Shown here one piece after another: positions 29,707 through 61,665 of a DNA stretch of 64,000 nucleotides. Source of the DNA: an uncultured archaeon. GTDB taxonomy: Archaea > Aenigmatarchaeota > Aenigmatarchaeia > QMZP01 > QMZT01. The stretch lies in the NCBI GenBank assembly GCA_964347025.1, contig CAYFWU010000004.1, positions 3,752-67,751 on the forward strand. The letters are read 5' to 3'. The notes under the pieces were generated by a model that did no database searches, had not been told where the DNA came from, and was given only the letters and a program-made list of their open reading frames with translations. The position numbers and the translations under genes were made by a program. The stretch's first letter is position 1. Each line of letters starts with the position of its first letter.

Positions 29707-29819
29707 GCTGGGGTGGCCGAGTGGTTAAGGCGCAGTAGCCTTTTGAGAAATCAATGGTTGCGCAAGGTTGCTAACCCTGTGGGCTTCGGCCCGCGCAGGT
29801 TCGAATCCTGTCCCCAGCG
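29707..29819 (+). tRNA. tRNA-Ser (anticodon GCU) with a 30-nt insertion in the 5' strand of the anticodon stem
   Basis: GCTGGGG-TG-GCCG-AGTGGTTAA-GGC-G-CAG[TAGCCTTTTGAGAAATCAATGGTTGCGCAA]GG-TTGCTAA-CCCTG-TGGGCTTCGGCCCGC-GCAGG-TTCGAAT-CCTGT-CCCCAGC-G. Class II variable arm. Confidence 0.7.
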
Positions 29820-43908: not shown

Positions 43909-45147
43909 CTACGGTTTAAACCATTCTATTTCATAGTATTCATACTTGGATTTTGGAAGAACGATCTTTTTCAGTTCGTAGTACGTTATTGAGGTTTCAC
44001 GATCTGTTATCGAGAGCAAAAGATTAAGGCCTGTATCCTTCGCCTTCTTCAACATTGAGGCGAGCTCAACCCCTCCAATGTGCTCGTCTTCAGATACCGA
44101 TACTAACACGTATCTTGGTTTATCCTTAGGGGTCTCTCTCACCCACACCCCTTTTCCTTTCTTCCTCCTGTAAGTCATGAAGTCTCCCTGATAATCAATG
44201 TAATCCTTCTTTTTCAATTCAGGGATCCCTAAGATAAACGTTTTCTTCACCCCGTGCGCAACGCGAACCGCTCTCGACCACTCAGAGATCAACAGTTTCT
44301 GCTCTTTGGGAAAAACATGGAGAACGTGCTTGGAGTGAACCCATTCCCCTCCCCTCACAGGAGAAGCTCCGGGGAAGTAAATACGAAAATGAGAACCGAA
44401 TTTAAACCCTGTTTTCACAACGTAACCTTTCAATCTCCAGTCCTCGTATATCTCATACAACTGTTTGGCATACTCCCTTTTTTTAACAACTTCTTTTAAG
44501 ATTCCCTCTGGTTTCATCTTCTTCCCGGTCTCGTTGCTTATAACCTCCAAGCCGAAGTGTTTCGCAAGGAAAATGGTCTCGAAGAAATTCAGTTTCGATT
44601 GCTTCCCTCTTTCCTGCTTGTACACTCCGTATTGCCCTATCCAGTATTTATCAAAAAGTTCTTTCCCAACCTTGTCGTTGTCCAGTATCGAAAACAGGGA
44701 ATCAGGGTACCAGTAGGCCTTTGCCTTAAGTTTCTCAGGTTTTAATTTCTGGGAAGGGTATTTCTTGTACGTTTTCTTCGAATGCTTACCCTGGACGTTT
44801 TCATTGAACCTTCTTACCACGAGACCGCGATCCCTCCAGTCCCTGTAAGCGTTATACCTTATGAACAGTCTCGGTTCTTTACCAATGAAATGTTTGGCCA
44901 GCGAATTGAAGTCGATCTCCTTCCCCCTCTTGTCCAGAACTACCGCATTCCTGAACATTATCAAATACATTGCTTCTTCGGGAAGTAGCGAGATCTTCCC
45001 CCCTTTCTGATTTCCGAAGAAATCATTCGTTAGTTTTCCAACTATCTCTGCCTCTTCCGCCCATATCCCCTTCCTAGGATCGAATTTCAGCTCAAGCATA
45101 GTAATACCTTTACCAACGGAATATATAAAATTAAAAAAACCCTTCAA
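43909..45147 (-). CDS. endA: tRNA-splicing endonuclease, single-chain three-unit form (alphaN-alpha-betaC-like)
   Basis: 412 aa (alternative ATG at 45099). Residues ~17-115 form an N-domain-like unit ending in YRDWRDRGLVV. Residues ~150-330 form a full catalytic unit (YEDWRLKGYVVKTGFKFGSHFRIY...HSKH...AHGVKK, the Tyr/His/Lys triad). Residues ~350-412 form a C-domain-only unit (YVLVSVSED...LLLSITDRETSITYYELK). Confidence 0.75.
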   Translation of the reverse strand: MKGFFNFIYSVGKGITMLELKFDPRKGIWAEEAEIVGKLTNDFFGNQKGGKISLLPEEAMYLIMFRNAVVLDKRGKEIDFNSLAKHFIGKEPRLFIRYNAYRDWRDRGLVVRRFNENVQGKHSKKTYKKYPSQKLKPEKLKAKAYWYPDSLFSILDNDKVGKELFDKYWIGQYGVYKQERGKQSKLNFFETIFLAKHFGLEVISNETGKKMKPEGILKEVVKKREYAKQLYEIYEDWRLKGYVVKTGFKFGSHFRIYFPGASPVRGGEWVHSKHVLHVFPKEQKLLISEWSRAVRVAHGVKKTFILGIPELKKKDYIDYQGDFMTYRRKKGKGVWVRETPKDKPRYVLVSVSEDEHIGGVELASMLKKAKDTGLNLLLSITDRETSITYYELKKIVLPKSKYEYYEIEWFKP

Positions 45148-46021
45148 GTTCCTGTTTTATTATTTCCTCTACCGCATCGGCCTCGAATTCATCCCTCGCA
45201 ACAGTGACGCCGTCTATTACCACTGTTTTCTTCCCATCGTTGTAGTAGAACTGAACCTTTTTGCCGTTACATTTAAATCCACTCAAGAGTTCTCTTTCCA
45301 GACGCGAAGTCCAGATAGAATCAATGACTTCAATCCCAGCCAAATATTTCATGAATTTATCCGAACCTCTGGGCAAATGATGATTCACAGAACCTCCGCA
45401 TATTTTTTCTTTCTGACTTTTCTTTGAAGGCTCTATCAATGTCATAATTAATTTTTTGTATTTGCAGCAGAGTTGTTGGTATTTTTTATTCAAATCCTGA
45501 TCATCCCTATATTTTTTCAGACCCTGTAGGTCTCTTTTTAAATTTCTGATCTCCTTTTCAAGATTACTCTTCCTTATTTTCATGCCCCTAAAAGCCTTTT
45601 CCGATTTTTGCAAACTTTTTTCTAATCCGAGAATTTTATCCTTGAGCTCTTGTATTGAATTATTATATTGTAACTGTCTTTCTTGGTATTTTATGAGGTC
45701 ATCTTTATCCTTTAATTTTTTCAAAATCTTTGATTTCTCAGCAGAAAAATACGGATGCACACTTTTGATTTCTTCTGTAATATCCCTGGGCAAACCTACA
45801 GCCTCTCCCTCTAGAAAACCAATAAGATCTTCATGTTTTATCACCTTTGGAAATTTAGGAAATTTCCTGTTAGTTTTTGATTTACCCTCTCCGTAATTAA
45901 CATTCAAAATATAGTAACTGGATTTGGGGGATCTGAGGTATATTATTTTTCGTAAAAAAGGAGAAACTATTTCGACTTCTATTTCTTTATCAAAATCATT
46001 TATAGTATAAATCGTTTTCAT
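45131..46021 (-). CDS. hypothetical coiled-coil protein
   Basis: 296 aa with a central heptad-rich Lys/Glu region flanked by globular ends. Lies immediately upstream of endA on the same strand. Confidence 0.4.
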   Translation of the reverse strand: MKTIYTINDFDKEIEVEIVSPFLRKIIYLRSPKSSYYILNVNYGEGKSKTNRKFPKFPKVIKHEDLIGFLEGEAVGLPRDITEEIKSVHPYFSAEKSKILKKLKDKDDLIKYQERQLQYNNSIQELKDKILGLEKSLQKSEKAFRGMKIRKSNLEKEIRNLKRDLQGLKKYRDDQDLNKKYQQLCCKYKKLIMTLIEPSKKSQKEKICGGSVNHHLPRGSDKFMKYLAGIEVIDSIWTSRLERELLSGFKCNGKKVQFYYNDGKKTVVIDGVTVARDEFEADAVEEIIKQELEGFF

Positions 46022-46053: not shown

Positions 46054-46632
46054 CTAATATCCTGCCAGATTTAAATTGAATTTTTTGGAATAATTTCCCA
46101 AAAGTCTTTTGAACTCTGCTCGTTCCCCATGAAAGAAATTGTAAAGCTTTCCACCACAGGGTCTGATCTCGTTTTCTTCATATTTCTTCATTTTCTTATT
46201 TTTTCCGGAGGCAAATCTGAGATCGGGAAATTTCAGATCAGAATTCTGATTGGGCATGTCCAGATTTATCCCGTAAAATTCCCTGTACTTCGTGCAGCCG
46301 GGGCAGCCACACCCGATTTTGTGTCCCCTCTCCCAGGGCGTCTTGATTTTTTCCTCTTCTCTACTTCTTTCAGCATACATATCCTTGCTCCTGGCAGTCT
46401 CTTTGGGCTCGTAGAGGTTTCGCAGCTCCTTTTTTATACTCTCTGCGTATTTCCTGAACTTTTCCTGATACTCTTTCAGATCATCAATGGATTCCGAATA
46501 CTCCTCATCCTCTTCTTCCCTGTCCTCTTCCTCATACTCGCTCGGGATTTCGAATTTCAGATCCTTTATTATCTCCCCTATCTCCTCGATCTCCTCCAGC
46601 AAAGAATCTATTTCCTTAGTGTTCATTCTCAC
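46054..46632 (-). CDS. hypothetical protein with acidic N-terminus and CGCPGC motif
   Basis: 192 aa. No family recognised. Confidence 0.4.
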   Translation of the reverse strand: MRMNTKEIDSLLEEIEEIGEIIKDLKFEIPSEYEEEDREEEDEEYSESIDDLKEYQEKFRKYAESIKKELRNLYEPKETARSKDMYAERSREEEKIKTPWERGHKIGCGCPGCTKYREFYGINLDMPNQNSDLKFPDLRFASGKNKKMKKYEENEIRPCGGKLYNFFHGERAEFKRLLGNYSKKFNLNLAGY

Positions 46633-46786: not shown

Positions 46787-47614
46787 ATGAAGATTCGCGA
46801 CCTTCTCAAGGGCAAGATCTCAGGTAAGGAAAAAGAATTCCTTAAGACTTCCTTCGATATAGTTGGTGATGTCGCTATCATAGAAATCCCGGAGGAACTT
46901 GAGAAAAAGGAGAAGGAGATAGCGAAAGCCTTAAAGAAGGTACACAAACATATAAAAACCGTTTGCAGGAAGATGAGTAAGAGGGAAGGAAAATACAGAT
47001 TAAGAAAATTTAAGATAATTTTAGGTTCAAAAACCGAAACCATCCATAAAGAACATGGCTGTAAATTCAAAATGGACATATCTAAAGTTTATTTCTCTCC
47101 GAGGGAATCCCAGGAAAGACAAAAGACTGCTGAAAAAATAAAATCCGGAGAAATTGTAATGGTAATGTTTGCAGGGATAGGTCCTTATCCGATAATCATA
47201 GCAAAGAAAAATAAAAATGTGAAAAAAATCTATGCAATTGAGATGAATTCAAAAGCCTTTGAATACATGAAAGAAAATATCAGAATAAATAAAGTTGGAG
47301 ATAAAGTTATTCCAATTTTAGGAAGCGTTGATGAAAAATGCCCGGAATATTTCGGAAAATGTGATCGAATTCTGATGCCTCTGCCAAAAGGATCTCATGA
47401 ATTTCTCTCTCTAGCGATAAATTGCTTAAAAAAAGGAAAGGGATGGATTCATTTTTACTACTGGGCACCTGAAGACGGTTTTAAAGAAGCTGAAGAAATG
47501 GTAAAAGGAACTGTTCGAAATTTAGGAAGGAAGGTAAAGAAAATCGAGATACGCAAGATCCTTCCCTACAAGCCTAAAGTCTGGAAAATATGCATGGATA
47601 TTGAGATTCGTTAG
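46787..47614 (+). CDS. trm5: tRNA (guanine37-N1)-methyltransferase Trm5 / Taw2-like (Met-10+ family)
   Basis: 275 aa. Has FDIVGDVAIIEIPEEL, HKEHGCKFKMDISKVYFSPRES and the SAM motif VMFAGIGPYPI. Confidence 0.75.
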   Translation: MKIRDLLKGKISGKEKEFLKTSFDIVGDVAIIEIPEELEKKEKEIAKALKKVHKHIKTVCRKMSKREGKYRLRKFKIILGSKTETIHKEHGCKFKMDISKVYFSPRESQERQKTAEKIKSGEIVMVMFAGIGPYPIIIAKKNKNVKKIYAIEMNSKAFEYMKENIRINKVGDKVIPILGSVDEKCPEYFGKCDRILMPLPKGSHEFLSLAINCLKKGKGWIHFYYWAPEDGFKEAEEMVKGTVRNLGRKVKKIEIRKILPYKPKVWKICMDIEIR

Positions 47615-51683: not shown

Positions 51684-51819
51684 TGGGCCGGGCAGGATTC
51701 CCAACGACCTTTTGGGTGGCGAGCCTTTTTTGACTCGCGGAAGCGTCTGGAAAAGGTTCGCATTGAACCTGCGACCTTCGCGTTGTAAGCGCGACGTCAT
51801 ACCACTAGACCACCGGCCC
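51684..51819 (-). tRNA. tRNA-Val (anticodon UAC) with a 64-nt insertion in the T-loop
   Basis: Minus strand: GGGCCGG-TG-GTCT-AGTGGTA-TGAC-G-TCGCG-CTTACAA-CGCGA-AGGTC-GCAGG-TTCAA[..64 nt..]AT-CCTGC-CCGGCCC-A. The junction is ambiguous by 2 nt. Confidence 0.75.
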
Positions 51820-58782: not shown

Positions 58783-58930
58783 TGCGCCGACCGGGACATT
58801 CAGACCGTTTTCCGTTGACGCTTTTCTGAAAAGGGTCATTTGAACCCGGGTTACAGGCTTGGGAAGCCCGTGTCCTAGTGCCCGCAAGTCCTTCTTGCGA
58901 AGTGAAGGCGCCAGGCTAGACTATCGGCGC
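58783..58930 (-). tRNA. tRNA-Gly (anticodon CCC) with two insertions (33 nt in D-loop, 42 nt in T-loop)
   Basis: Minus strand: GCGCCGA-TA-GTCT-AGCCTGG[33]TA-GGAC-A-CGGGC-TTCCCAA-GCCTG-TAAC-CCGGG-TTCAAAT[42]CCCGG-TCGGCGC-A. The exons total 73 nt. Confidence 0.75.
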
Positions 58931-61415: not shown

Positions 61416-61665
61416 CGCTGGGAGCAGGAAATTCGAGCGAAGCAGGTTTCACCTGCTTCATACGCCATTCGAACCTGCACGGGCAAAAAGCCCACCGGAT
61501 CTCTTGACATAGCTCGTCCGAGGACTTGCTGATGTAAGATACTGGTTTTGGTTGATCTTCATCTCCGCCGTATCCGAGTCAAGCCATCAAATCACCGCAA
61601 CGCAAGGTCGCTCATAAGATCCAGTGCTCAAGTCCGGCGCGTTAGCCTGGTTCCGCCATCCCAGC
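61416..61665 (-). tRNA. tRNA-Ser (anticodon UGA) with a 126-nt canonical-position intron and a 38-nt T-loop insertion
   Basis: Minus strand: GCTGGGA-TG-GCGG-AACCAGGCTAA-CGC-G-CCGGA-CTTGAG[126]A-TCCGG-TGGGCTTTTTGCCCGT-GCAGG-TTCGAAT[38]CCTGC-TCCCAGC-G. A TATTTATAAATA box lies about 30 nt upstream. Confidence 0.7.

Follow-up and report, generated by a model that had tools for sequence, protein, structure and literature searches.

The closest described system is the epsilon2-type tRNA splicing endonuclease (EndA, also VSEN) of the tiny archaeon ARMAN-2, Candidatus Micrarchaeum acidiphilum. It was the first of its type to be described, and structures of it have been determined in the apo form (PDB 4FZ2) and with BHB RNA (9W2K) (PMC3239211, PMC3488258, PMC12397907). 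The roles of its residues are known from mutagenesis and from these crystal structures. A Tyr-Lys pair in the ASL loop, beside the active site, leads to cleavage of relaxed motifs, and transplanting it confers the same ability on a narrow enzyme. Alanine mutants of K241 and K244 keep their activity, and the enzyme works alone in vitro (PMC3239211, PMC3488258, PMC12397907). In the literature searched, epsilon2 is placed in Micrarchaeota only: ARMAN-1, ARMAN-2 and Mia14 in 2018, and five Micrarchaeota in 2025.

The gene considered here, endA, is carried by a stretch of 64,000 nucleotides (the window) from an uncultured member of the Aenigmatarchaeota. Positions 43909-45099 of the reverse strand very probably encode an epsilon2-type tRNA (RNA) splicing endonuclease, predicted to be active and to follow the mechanism proposed below. 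Enzymes of this type are already well characterised in structure and mechanism, and the gene itself is ordinary.

Gene model and three-unit organization

The reading frame of 412 codons noticed in the sequence-only reading is present. Its TTG was not retained as the start, since the relatives and the gene-caller product (P0002, 396 aa) begin at Met17 of this frame; in the relatives, the codon aligned with Met17 is ATG or GTG. This points almost with certainty to the ATG at 45099 as the true start. The 16 extra codons, which extend over the 3′ end of up1, the gene upstream, and over a TATA-like box, are probably untranslated. With this start the overlap with the up1 frame disappears, and the ATG stands 31 nt past the up1 stop.

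43909-45147 (-): maximal ORF, 412 codons counted from TTG
45100..45147 (-): extension of the maximal ORF by 16 codons, beginning with the TTG at 45147; set apart on the basis of relatives and gene-caller product
43909..45099 (-): endA, putative epsilon2-type tRNA splicing endonuclease, 396 aa and TAG stop at 43911-43909
45097-45099 (-): almost certain endA start ATG, residue 17 (Met) of the maximal ORF
44812..45099 (-): alphaN unit, residues 1-96 (ARMAN-2 unit 2-97; Pfam PF02778)
44725..44811 (-): linker 1, residues 97-125 (maps to ARMAN-2 98-125)
44224..44724 (-): catalytic alpha unit, residues 126-292 (Pfam, phmmer and ARMAN-2 residue mapping)
44605..44628 (-): ASL (L2) loop GVYKQERG, residues 158-165, carrying Tyr160 and Lys161
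44413-44415 (-): pocket Lys229, alpha unit; the second pocket residue is Lys233
44377-44379 (-): Tyr241, catalytic triad, alpha unit
44335-44337 (-): His255, triad, alpha unit; Ser256 adjoins
44263-44265 (-): Arg279, RNA clamp, alpha unit
44242-44244 (-): Lys286, catalytic triad, alpha unit
44182..44223 (-): linker 2, residues 293-306 (maps to ARMAN-2 289-300)
43912..44181 (-): betaC unit, residues 307-396, C-terminal subdomain only
44002-44004 (-): L10 Asp366, betaC unit
43921-43923 (-): RNA-clamp Trp393, betaC unit

The layout proposed from the letters alone, with an N-terminal unit stopping after YRDWRDRGLVV, a catalytic unit marked by FRIY, HSKH and GVKK, and a last unit reduced to the C-terminal subdomain, was recovered. 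The alphaN unit, which ends after YRDWRDRGLVVRR, corresponds to an N-terminal subdomain without catalytic residues, and the Tyr/His/Lys triad is confined to the alpha unit, alphaN and betaC having none. Pfam finds tRNA_int_endo in two stretches of the ORF (9e-27) and tRNA_int_endo_N (1.5e-5), while the betaC unit gives weak beta-subunit matches in a domain profile search.

Assignment to the epsilon2 type

In a phmmer search of the PDB, residues 28-412 of the ORF align with residues 14-387 of 4fz2_A/9w2k (E=3e-104). Identity to the ARMAN-2 enzyme is 46% over 368 aligned positions, and the unit boundaries of the two proteins match one-to-one. The AlphaFold2 monomer model of the endA product (pLDDT 86.4, pTM 0.79; confidence is lower over residues 101-120, in the linker 1 region, with block means of 67 and 81) was compared with known structures using Foldseek. 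TM-scores are 0.91/0.93 to 4fz2_A (rmsd 2.2 A) and 0.91/0.94 to 9w2k_B, while no other EndA type exceeds 0.56, with 0.56 for a fused alpha-beta enzyme, 0.49 for alpha'2 (2gjw) and 0.34 for alpha4 (1a79).

All 11 ARMAN-2 residues that have been mutated or seen touching RNA are conserved: Y160, K161, K224, K228, Y236 and H251, as well as S252, R275, K282, D357 and W384, correspond to identical residues in the endA product. Among 41 epsilon2 sequences from two phyla, ten of these positions are invariant, including the ASL pair Tyr160 and Lys161 and the clamp pair Arg279 and Trp393; the catalytic Tyr241 is conserved at 90% or more. The pair that makes the ARMAN-2 dimer contact (D357, K224) is kept as D366 and K229. 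On the evidence of sequence and predicted fold, the endA product is orthologous over its full length to the ARMAN-2 enzyme, which bears out the alphaN-alpha-betaC reading made at the outset.

It might be argued that endA encodes an alpha'2 or alpha4 enzyme of the ordinary kind to which unrelated extensions have been added, or a relic without activity, and Pfam alone indeed gives generic EndA domains only. Comparison of structure and profiles with the EndA architectures, which had been proposed as a test that could refute the reading, does not favour an ordinary enzyme: the 396 residues hold three partial units, the structural similarity is far closer to epsilon2 than to alpha'2 or alpha4, and the alignment with 4FZ2 runs over the full length. 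As for a relic, the frame is intact, the catalytic residues vary little or not at all, and the genome has no other EndA. An ordinary or decayed enzyme thus has a negligible chance of being correct, and this explanation is rejected.

Proposed mechanism

By analogy with ARMAN-2, two copies of the single 396-aa chain, each made of an alphaN, a catalytic alpha and a betaC unit, would form a homodimer through contact of the L10 Asp366 of betaC with the basic pocket (Lys229) of alpha. Such a dimer would offer two catalytic sites, each cutting one 3-nt bulge of the bulge-helix-bulge (BHB). Cleavage would be carried out by Tyr241, His255 and Lys286, leaving a 2′,3′-cyclic phosphate end. The flipped bulge base would be clamped by Arg279 and Trp393, and the bulge backbone would be held by Tyr160 and Lys161 of the ASL, which in ARMAN-2 is the basis of relaxed-motif cutting. 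After removal of the intron, the exons would be joined by RtcB; the genome carries an RtcB ligase (E=7e-158). Dimerisation, activity and breadth of specificity are what we infer for the endA product from its orthologue. In this 89%-complete genome, PF01974 matches this endA gene only. As the sole EndA, its product must excise all tRNA introns, including the six of the window.

tRNA introns and breadth of specificity

Introns were searched for by brute-force deletion of intervals, the remaining tRNA being scored with ARAGORN. This gave six introns in four tRNA genes, one at 29/30, one in the D-loop, one at 37/38 and three at 59/60 in the T-loop, in agreement with the earlier count of five non-canonical insertions out of six.

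29707..29819 (+): tRNA-Ser(GCU), class II; 30-nt intron 29736-29765 in the anticodon stem, 29/30
51684..51819 (-): tRNA-Val(UAC); 64-nt intron 51698-51761 in the T-loop, 59/60
58783..58930 (-): tRNA-Gly(CCC); 33-nt D-loop intron 58878-58910 and 42-nt T-loop intron 58797-58838
61416..61665 (-): tRNA-Ser(UGA); 126-nt canonical intron 61501-61626 at 37/38
61416..61665 (-): same tRNA-Ser(UGA), second intron; 38 nt, T-loop, 61430-61467

The intron-free forms of the four tRNAs are clean, with ARAGORN scores of 121-125; as a negative control, one of 40 random windows gave a match, with a score of 104.5. Run directly on the window, ARAGORN reports one tRNA when introns are disallowed and two when canonical introns are allowed, and the Glu(UUC) call obtained with introns allowed was discarded as a miscalled class II tRNA-Ser(GCU). 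The program is useless for non-canonical introns. Because of such introns, standard tRNA finders detect no more than 15 tRNA genes in this genome.

The splice boundaries were scanned for the 3-4-3 geometry (a 4-bp helix between two 3-nt bulges), and this BHB core was exactly in place in all six introns. Both flanking helices are present for the Gly T-loop intron and for the two introns of tRNA-Ser(UGA). In the three others the adjacent outer or inner helix is missing, so that about three introns have relaxed flanks: the 29/30 intron of tRNA-Ser(GCU) has the core without an outer helix, and the central helix of the Val intron contains two G-U pairs. Minimum-free-energy folds of the whole pre-tRNAs did not give a clean BHB, the Val precursor yielding a 3x3 internal loop.

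The suggestion that these introns fit a broad-specificity enzyme stands in part. Five of the six are non-canonical in position, but the 3-4-3 core is retained in each, and flanking helices on both sides are seen in about half. An unusual site of insertion alone does not demand broad specificity and, with about half of the introns looking like strict BHB motifs, the window is no proof of a need for it. One may therefore imagine an epsilon2 fold with a substrate range limited to strict BHB motifs, the odd intron positions being handled because archaeal EndAs read the BHB without reference to the tRNA body. The cores found throughout, together with the three complete sets of flanking helices, would suit such an enzyme, as would the normal tRNA detectability of four epsilon2 families (f15, f24, f27 and f28). 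It fits less well with the three introns lacking an outer or inner helix, with the G-U pairs of the Val helix and with the ASL Tyr-Lys pair, the relaxed-motif determinant of ARMAN-2, which is invariant here. A strict substrate range is unlikely. The enzyme may act on relaxed motifs too, to which its position as sole EndA in a genome with relaxed-looking introns lends indirect support.

Upstream genes and transcription

Two same-strand reading frames precede endA, as the sequence-only reading had it.

45131..46021 (-): up1, 296-aa coiled-coil ORFan between up2 and endA
46054..46626 (-): up2, 190 aa, ATG at 46626 (maximal ORF from GTG at 46632)
45121..45130 (-): TATA-like box TTTTATATAT, directly past the up1 stop and ~26 nt upstream of the endA ATG

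In a collection of 5.8 billion proteins, up1 has three homologues. It contains no Pfam or NCBIfam domain, and its coiled-coil/SMC-like matches are weak and far below cut-offs. The up2 product, also without a Pfam or NCBIfam domain, is acidic in its N-terminal half and contains the cluster H-x3-C-x-C-x2-C ... PC ... H, which is invariant; the 25 homologues of up2 are all unnamed or called hypothetical. Its AlphaFold model (pLDDT 56, pTM 0.27) was too poor for a fold search. A divergent Trm5/TYW2-type tRNA methyltransferase gene adjoins up2.

The box TTTTATATAT might be an endA promoter of its own, a possibility weakened by the fact that its position is not conserved in relatives, where the regions upstream of endA are AT-rich and often contain a GGTGA-like ribosome-binding site. 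A scan with a bacterial-type promoter and terminator model, unsuited to an archaeon, did no better than on shuffled sequence. The sequencing runs containing the locus are DNA metagenomes only.

Co-transcription of the three genes, raised earlier, is possible given their common strand, but is otherwise unsupported since up1 occurs in the closest relatives only and up2 in the same family only. It may further be asked whether up2, up1 and endA form a functional operon in which up1 and up2 act as partners or regulators of splicing. The gaps of 31-32 nt, the presence of up2 directly upstream of endA in eight loci of the same family and the neighbouring methyltransferase gene would be in line with this proposal. 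However, up1 is found in one of 80 related loci (L001), up2 keeps its place only in close relatives, where the neighbourhood as a whole is conserved, and neither gene adjoins the epsilon2 genes of Micrarchaeota. Moreover, both proteins are devoid of domains, a TATA-like box separates up1 from endA, and the ARMAN-2 enzyme needs no partner in vitro. Domains, homologues and neighbourhoods revealed no link of up1 or up2 to splicing. A splicing operon is therefore very unlikely.

Distribution of epsilon2 in Aenigmatarchaeota

Among 201 sampled Aenigmatarchaeota genomes, epsilon2 occurs in 66, covering one whole order and four families, and an alpha-type EndA in 135. Within the order to which the window belongs, the gene is intact, full-length and conserved in 49 of the 50 genomes sampled. 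From this gene and its relatives, epsilon2 is seen to be the usual EndA throughout one Aenigmatarchaeota order.

It is tempting to imagine that epsilon2, and with it a loop supposed to be peculiar to ARMAN, has long been present in a second DPANN phylum. This reading is tentative, its chances being a little under even. It takes in at least three deep Aenigmatarchaeota epsilon2 clades that do not nest within the Micrarchaeota clade, with epsilon2 as sole EndA in the family of the window, beside alpha-type genes in some sister genomes, and missing from most other families of the phylum. If it is true, EndA types would have been replaced within one phylum and the disruption of tRNA genes would not track the enzyme type.

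Across the 201 genomes, no epsilon2-specific link to poor tRNA detectability was found (family-level p=0.38) using a crude proxy, namely RF00005 counts, which saturate because 23 candidates were scored per genome. This proxy does not support a simple rule by which epsilon2 would go with disrupted tRNAs. Epsilon2, alpha-type and dual-EndA genomes occur together in the phylum, and tRNA detectability varies widely among them; the phylum is thus well suited to testing the long-standing idea that tRNA introns and splicing enzymes co-evolve.

Comparison with known EndA systems

The alpha4 enzyme of Methanocaldococcus jannaschii (1A79) has a homologous catalytic unit (E=9.5e-18). Unlike epsilon2, it is a homotetramer of a subunit of ~180-200 aa, without alphaN, betaC or ASL; the alpha-type genes of most other Aenigmatarchaeota families encode ~190 aa. 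The fused alpha-beta enzyme of Methanopyrus kandleri (5X89) and the alpha'2 enzyme of Archaeoglobus fulgidus (2GJW), the sources of the TM-scores of 0.56 and 0.49, resemble epsilon2 in being single dimerising chains and share its catalytic chemistry. However, they have two units, both of them full, where epsilon2 has three partial units, and they lack the ASL. Their specificity is narrow or constrained and, in alpha'2, the order of the catalytic and structural units is reversed.

The (alpha-beta)2 enzymes of Crenarchaeota with a CSL loop (Aeropyrum pernix, 3P1Z/3AJV) combine, like epsilon2, a catalytic alpha with a structural beta and use an Arg/Trp clamp. They have broad specificity, and their inserted Lys-bearing loop (CSL) is placed as the ASL is, the two loops being unrelated in sequence and convergent. 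In contrast to epsilon2, these enzymes are heterotetramers of two separate polypeptides without alphaN, and their TM-score to the endA model is ~0.36 (query-normalised).

The endA product differs from the ARMAN-2 enzyme in its host phylum, Aenigmatarchaeota instead of Micrarchaeota within DPANN, and in small details. Its ASL (GVYKQE-RG) is shorter by one residue than in ARMAN-2 and other Micrarchaeota, its Tyr-to-His loop is also shorter by one residue, and the loop lysines K241 and K244 are replaced by Ser and Arg. Otherwise, the two enzymes have in common the alphaN-linker-alpha-linker-betaC order, their size (396 aa here, 387-395 aa there), the catalytic triad, the Arg/Trp clamp, the ASL Tyr-Lys pair, the pocket Lys and the L10 Asp, as well as a host genome with several non-canonically placed tRNA introns, including 59/60 in the T-loop.

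A single-chain endonuclease of the epsilon2 type

The reading frame 43909-45147 (minus strand), 412 codons long from a TTG, had been interpreted from sequence alone as a three-part tRNA splicing endonuclease with the alphaN-alpha-betaC layout of the epsilon2 enzymes. Profile searches bear out the three parts. Pfam detects the EndA N-terminal domain (E=1.5e-5) and, in two stretches, the catalytic EndA domain (E=9e-27), and the last ~55 residues give weak NCBIfam matches to the structural beta subunit. The 412-codon frame exists but its true start is to be moved to the ATG at 45097-45099, because the gene callers' product has 396 aa (P0002), the proteins of relatives all start at the aligned ORF residue 17 (Met, ATG or GTG codon) and the alignment with the ARMAN-2 enzyme starts only from ORF residue 28. 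In several relatives, a GGTGA-like ribosome-binding site accompanies the aligned residue-17 start. Counted from this ATG, the gene lies 31 nt from its upstream neighbour, which the longer frame had appeared to overlap by 17 nt. The genes considered here are:

43909-45099, minus strand: endA, splicing endonuclease
45131-46021, minus strand: up1, 296-aa coiled-coil ORFan
46054-46626, minus strand: up2, member of a ~190-aa family
46787-47614, plus strand: Trm5/TYW2-type tRNA methyltransferase

Comparison of endA with all PDB sequences gave a single outstanding match, 4fz2_A/9w2k (E=3e-104, ORF 28-412 against chain 14-387), the second-best match being at E=9e-21. According to the literature, both entries belong to the epsilon2-type EndA of Candidatus Micrarchaeum acidiphilum ARMAN-2; in 9W2K the enzyme carries a bulge-helix-bulge (BHB) RNA. 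An AlphaFold2 model was then obtained from an alignment of 41 epsilon2 sequences from Aenigmatarchaeota and Micrarchaeota loci (mean pLDDT 86.4, pTM 0.79) and searched against the PDB.

Foldseek comparison of the endA model with PDB structures
4fz2_A, epsilon2: TM 0.91 (query), 0.93 (target), rmsd 2.2 A
9w2k_B, epsilon2 with RNA: TM 0.91 (query), 0.94 (target)
5x89, fused alpha-beta: TM 0.56 (query)
2gjw, alpha'2: TM 0.49 (query)
1a79, alpha4: TM 0.34 (query)

Structural comparison, proposed in the sequence-only reading as a possible refutation of the epsilon2 layout, thus upholds it, with TM values of 0.91-0.94 against at most 0.56 for the other types. EndA is an ordinary member of the characterised epsilon2 family and, by analogy, its product is very probably an active enzyme. 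Public databases label these proteins merely 'tRNA-intron lyase'.

The assembly (1.06 Mb, 40 contigs, 89% complete) shows matches to the EndA catalytic domain in the endA reading frame only. Therefore, as far as the assembly shows, endA is the organism's only splicing endonuclease. The RtcB ligase, responsible for the joining step, is found in the genome (E=7e-158).

Interrupted tRNA genes and their BHB motifs

In the window, ARAGORN recognises one tRNA, or two if canonical introns are allowed, and Rfam three, two of them of odd shape. On the whole 89%-complete genome ARAGORN finds only 15 tRNA genes, 8 with introns; standard tools miss most of the tRNA set. Every interval or pair of intervals was deleted from four candidate regions and the products were scored by ARAGORN. 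All four regions gave a clean tRNA (score 121-125), as compared with one match only, at 104.5, in 40 random 136-nt windows.

29707-29819, plus strand: tRNA-Ser(GCU), 30-nt intron at 29/30
51684-51819, minus strand: tRNA-Val(UAC), 64-nt T-loop intron (51698-51761)
58783-58930, minus strand: tRNA-Gly(CCC), 33-nt D-loop intron and 42-nt T-loop intron (58797-58838)
61416-61665, minus strand: tRNA-Ser(UGA), 126-nt intron at 37/38 and 38-nt T-loop intron (61430-61467)

With introns allowed, ARAGORN takes the first of these for a tRNA-Glu(UUC) interrupted by 18 nt; it is in fact a class II tRNA with a long variable arm, the intron of which lies within the anticodon stem. The earlier count is correct: of six insertions, five lie at non-canonical positions.

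The splice boundaries were examined for the substrate geometry of this enzyme family, in which a 4-bp helix stands between two 3-nt bulges, one on each strand, and the cut in each bulge follows its second nucleotide. Such a core occurs in all six introns, exactly at the boundaries yielding the best tRNA; its chance occurrence is estimated at ~2% per predetermined boundary. The three T-loop introns follow one design: each ends (3') in a YGAA-like word that makes up the central helix together with nucleotides 54-57 (TTCR) of the T-loop, and the outer helix is provided by the T-stem, with 59/60 as splice site. As TTCR is found in nearly all tRNAs, this design could suit almost any of them. In tRNA-Ser(GCU), the central helix pairs exon nucleotides 24-27 (GCGC) with GCGC at the 3' end of the intron.

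As to the motif itself, the description of the introns as non-canonical holds only in part. When adjacent flanking pairs are simply counted, three motifs look strict (Gly T-loop, Ser(UGA) T-loop and Ser(UGA) 37/38) and three relaxed: that of tRNA-Ser(GCU) has no outer helix, a mismatch displaces the outer helix of the Gly D-loop intron, and in the Val T-loop intron the inner helix is displaced and the central one includes two G-U pairs. The introns of the window are therefore compatible with a broad-specificity enzyme, without proving the need for one.

Genes upstream of endA

It had been suggested that up1 and up2 could be co-transcribed with endA. This is possible, but the space between up1 and endA contains a TATA-like box, and there is no sign that the genes are functionally linked. 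Neither upstream gene has a recognisable Pfam or NCBIfam domain, their distribution is narrow and, where up2 adjoins endA, the whole neighbourhood is conserved. Among 5.8 billion proteins, just three are relatives of up1, which is present in one of 80 related loci. It was inserted recently between up2 and endA, where only the window genome and those closest to it have it. up2 has 25 homologues, the few with a source name being from Aenigmatarchaeota. Its N-terminal half is acidic, and its invariant motifs ERGHKxGCGCPGC and RPCGG...FHG form a His/Cys cluster that probably binds zinc; the structure model of up2 was too poor for use. The up2 gene directly precedes endA in eight loci of the window's family, within an entirely conserved neighbourhood that includes a TraB-like gene, a zinc-ribbon gene and the Trm5/TYW2-type methyltransferase. 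The latter (PF02475, E=1.7e-48, plus a TYW2 N-terminal domain) is the divergent neighbour of up2, two genes from endA, an arrangement kept in ten related loci.

Distribution and evolution of the epsilon2 enzyme

The nearest relatives of endA (61-88% identity) come from MAGs that bear the label Candidatus Aenigmatarchaeota; identity to Micrarchaeota proteins is 47-51%. In a sample of 201 genomes of the phylum, 66 carry an epsilon2 gene (best match E below 1e-80), full-length and intact in the majority of cases. The window's own order (families f1-f5) accounts for 49 of them, out of 50 genomes sampled, and families f15, f24, f27 and f28 for the other 17, every one of their sampled genomes being included. 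The other 135 give weaker matches to the catalytic unit only, mostly as open frames of ~180-230 aa. Some epsilon2 genomes, several of them in the window's order, also hold an alpha-type gene of ~190-230 aa, whereas the sampled genomes of the window's family have epsilon2 alone. One alpha-type gene (G003:C3:11954-12496) has two in-frame stops and may represent the degenerating remains of an alpha4 enzyme since displaced.

A maximum-likelihood tree of 81 proteins, rooted at midpoint only, resolves the window's order (support 100), Micrarchaeota (99), f24+f28 (98) and f15+f27 (98), with weak links (61) among these four groups. The Micrarchaeota group does not enclose the Aenigmatarchaeota genes, so that recent transfer is not indicated; an early common origin and an ancient transfer both stand as possibilities. 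A contig filed under the bacterial Candidatus Kaiserbacteria (L051, MFMA01000035.1) encodes the very same epsilon2 EndA as L050, from a Norongarragalinales (Micrarchaeota) MAG, most likely through a binning error in the public record. Another locus, L020, filed as Nanoarchaeota, clusters with the window's Aenigmatarchaeota order.

Whether epsilon2 accompanies disrupted tRNA genes was examined using the number of Rfam tRNA matches per genome as a proxy for detectability; with 23 candidates scored per genome, this proxy saturates at ~23. The median is 13 in the window's own order, 23 in the other epsilon2 families and 19 in alpha-type-only genomes. Alpha-only families f9, f14, f6 and f18 have counts as low as the window's order or lower, and no family-level association between epsilon2 and these proxy counts was found in the 201 genomes (Mann-Whitney p=0.38). 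The lack of association is in line with a published statement according to which the diversity of tRNA genes tracks loop insertions, not subunit type. It also restricts the earlier argument from co-occurrence of epsilon2 and non-canonical introns to the window's lineage.

Comparison with the ARMAN-2 enzyme

According to a 2018 paper, epsilon2 was known only from ARMAN-1, ARMAN-2 and Mancarchaeum Mia14, and a 2025 structural paper compared the ASL (L2) loop among five Micrarchaeota only. Nothing relevant on Aenigmarchaeota or Aenigmatarchaeota and splicing endonucleases or tRNA introns was found among searchable papers; a known family is met here in a phylum for which they give no description.

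EndA is 46% identical to the ARMAN-2 enzyme over 368 positions of a global alignment, through which the published unit boundaries were transferred.

Units of endA (P0002 numbering)
1-96: alphaN unit
97-125: linker 1
126-292: alpha unit
293-306: linker 2
307-396: betaC unit

Functional residues of ARMAN-2 and their endA counterparts
Y236, H251, K282 = Y241, H255, K286: catalytic triad; alanine mutants inactive in ARMAN-2
S252 = S256: phosphate contact
R275, W384 = R279, W393: clamp on bulged base
K228 = K233: bulge stabilisation
Y160, K161 = Y160, K161: ASL; mutants and loop deletion inactive in ARMAN-2
K224, D357 = K229, D366: dimer interface; ARMAN-2 mutants neither dimerise nor cleave

Homology, fold, functional residues, gene uniqueness, the ligase and the BHB-bearing substrates are established here; the mechanism that may be envisaged takes its steps from the ARMAN-2 work. 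Two endA chains would dimerise through Asp366 and the Lys229 pocket. Each alpha unit would cut one bulge by means of Tyr241, His255 and Lys286, leaving a 2',3'-cyclic phosphate, while the flipped base would be held by Arg279 and Trp393. Tyr160 and Lys161 would fix the bulge backbone, thereby permitting relaxed motifs, and RtcB would join the exons.

All ARMAN-2 residues with an experimentally supported role are identical in endA, and their codons were checked in the window DNA. They are invariant in the 41-sequence alignment, with the exception of Tyr241 (at least 90%). The ASL, which in the ARMAN-2 work gave relaxed-motif cleavage to a narrow enzyme on transplantation, is one residue shorter in the window's clade, as is the Tyr-to-His loop. 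Finally, ARMAN-2 K241 and K244, the alanine mutants of which retain activity, are replaced by Ser and Arg in endA.
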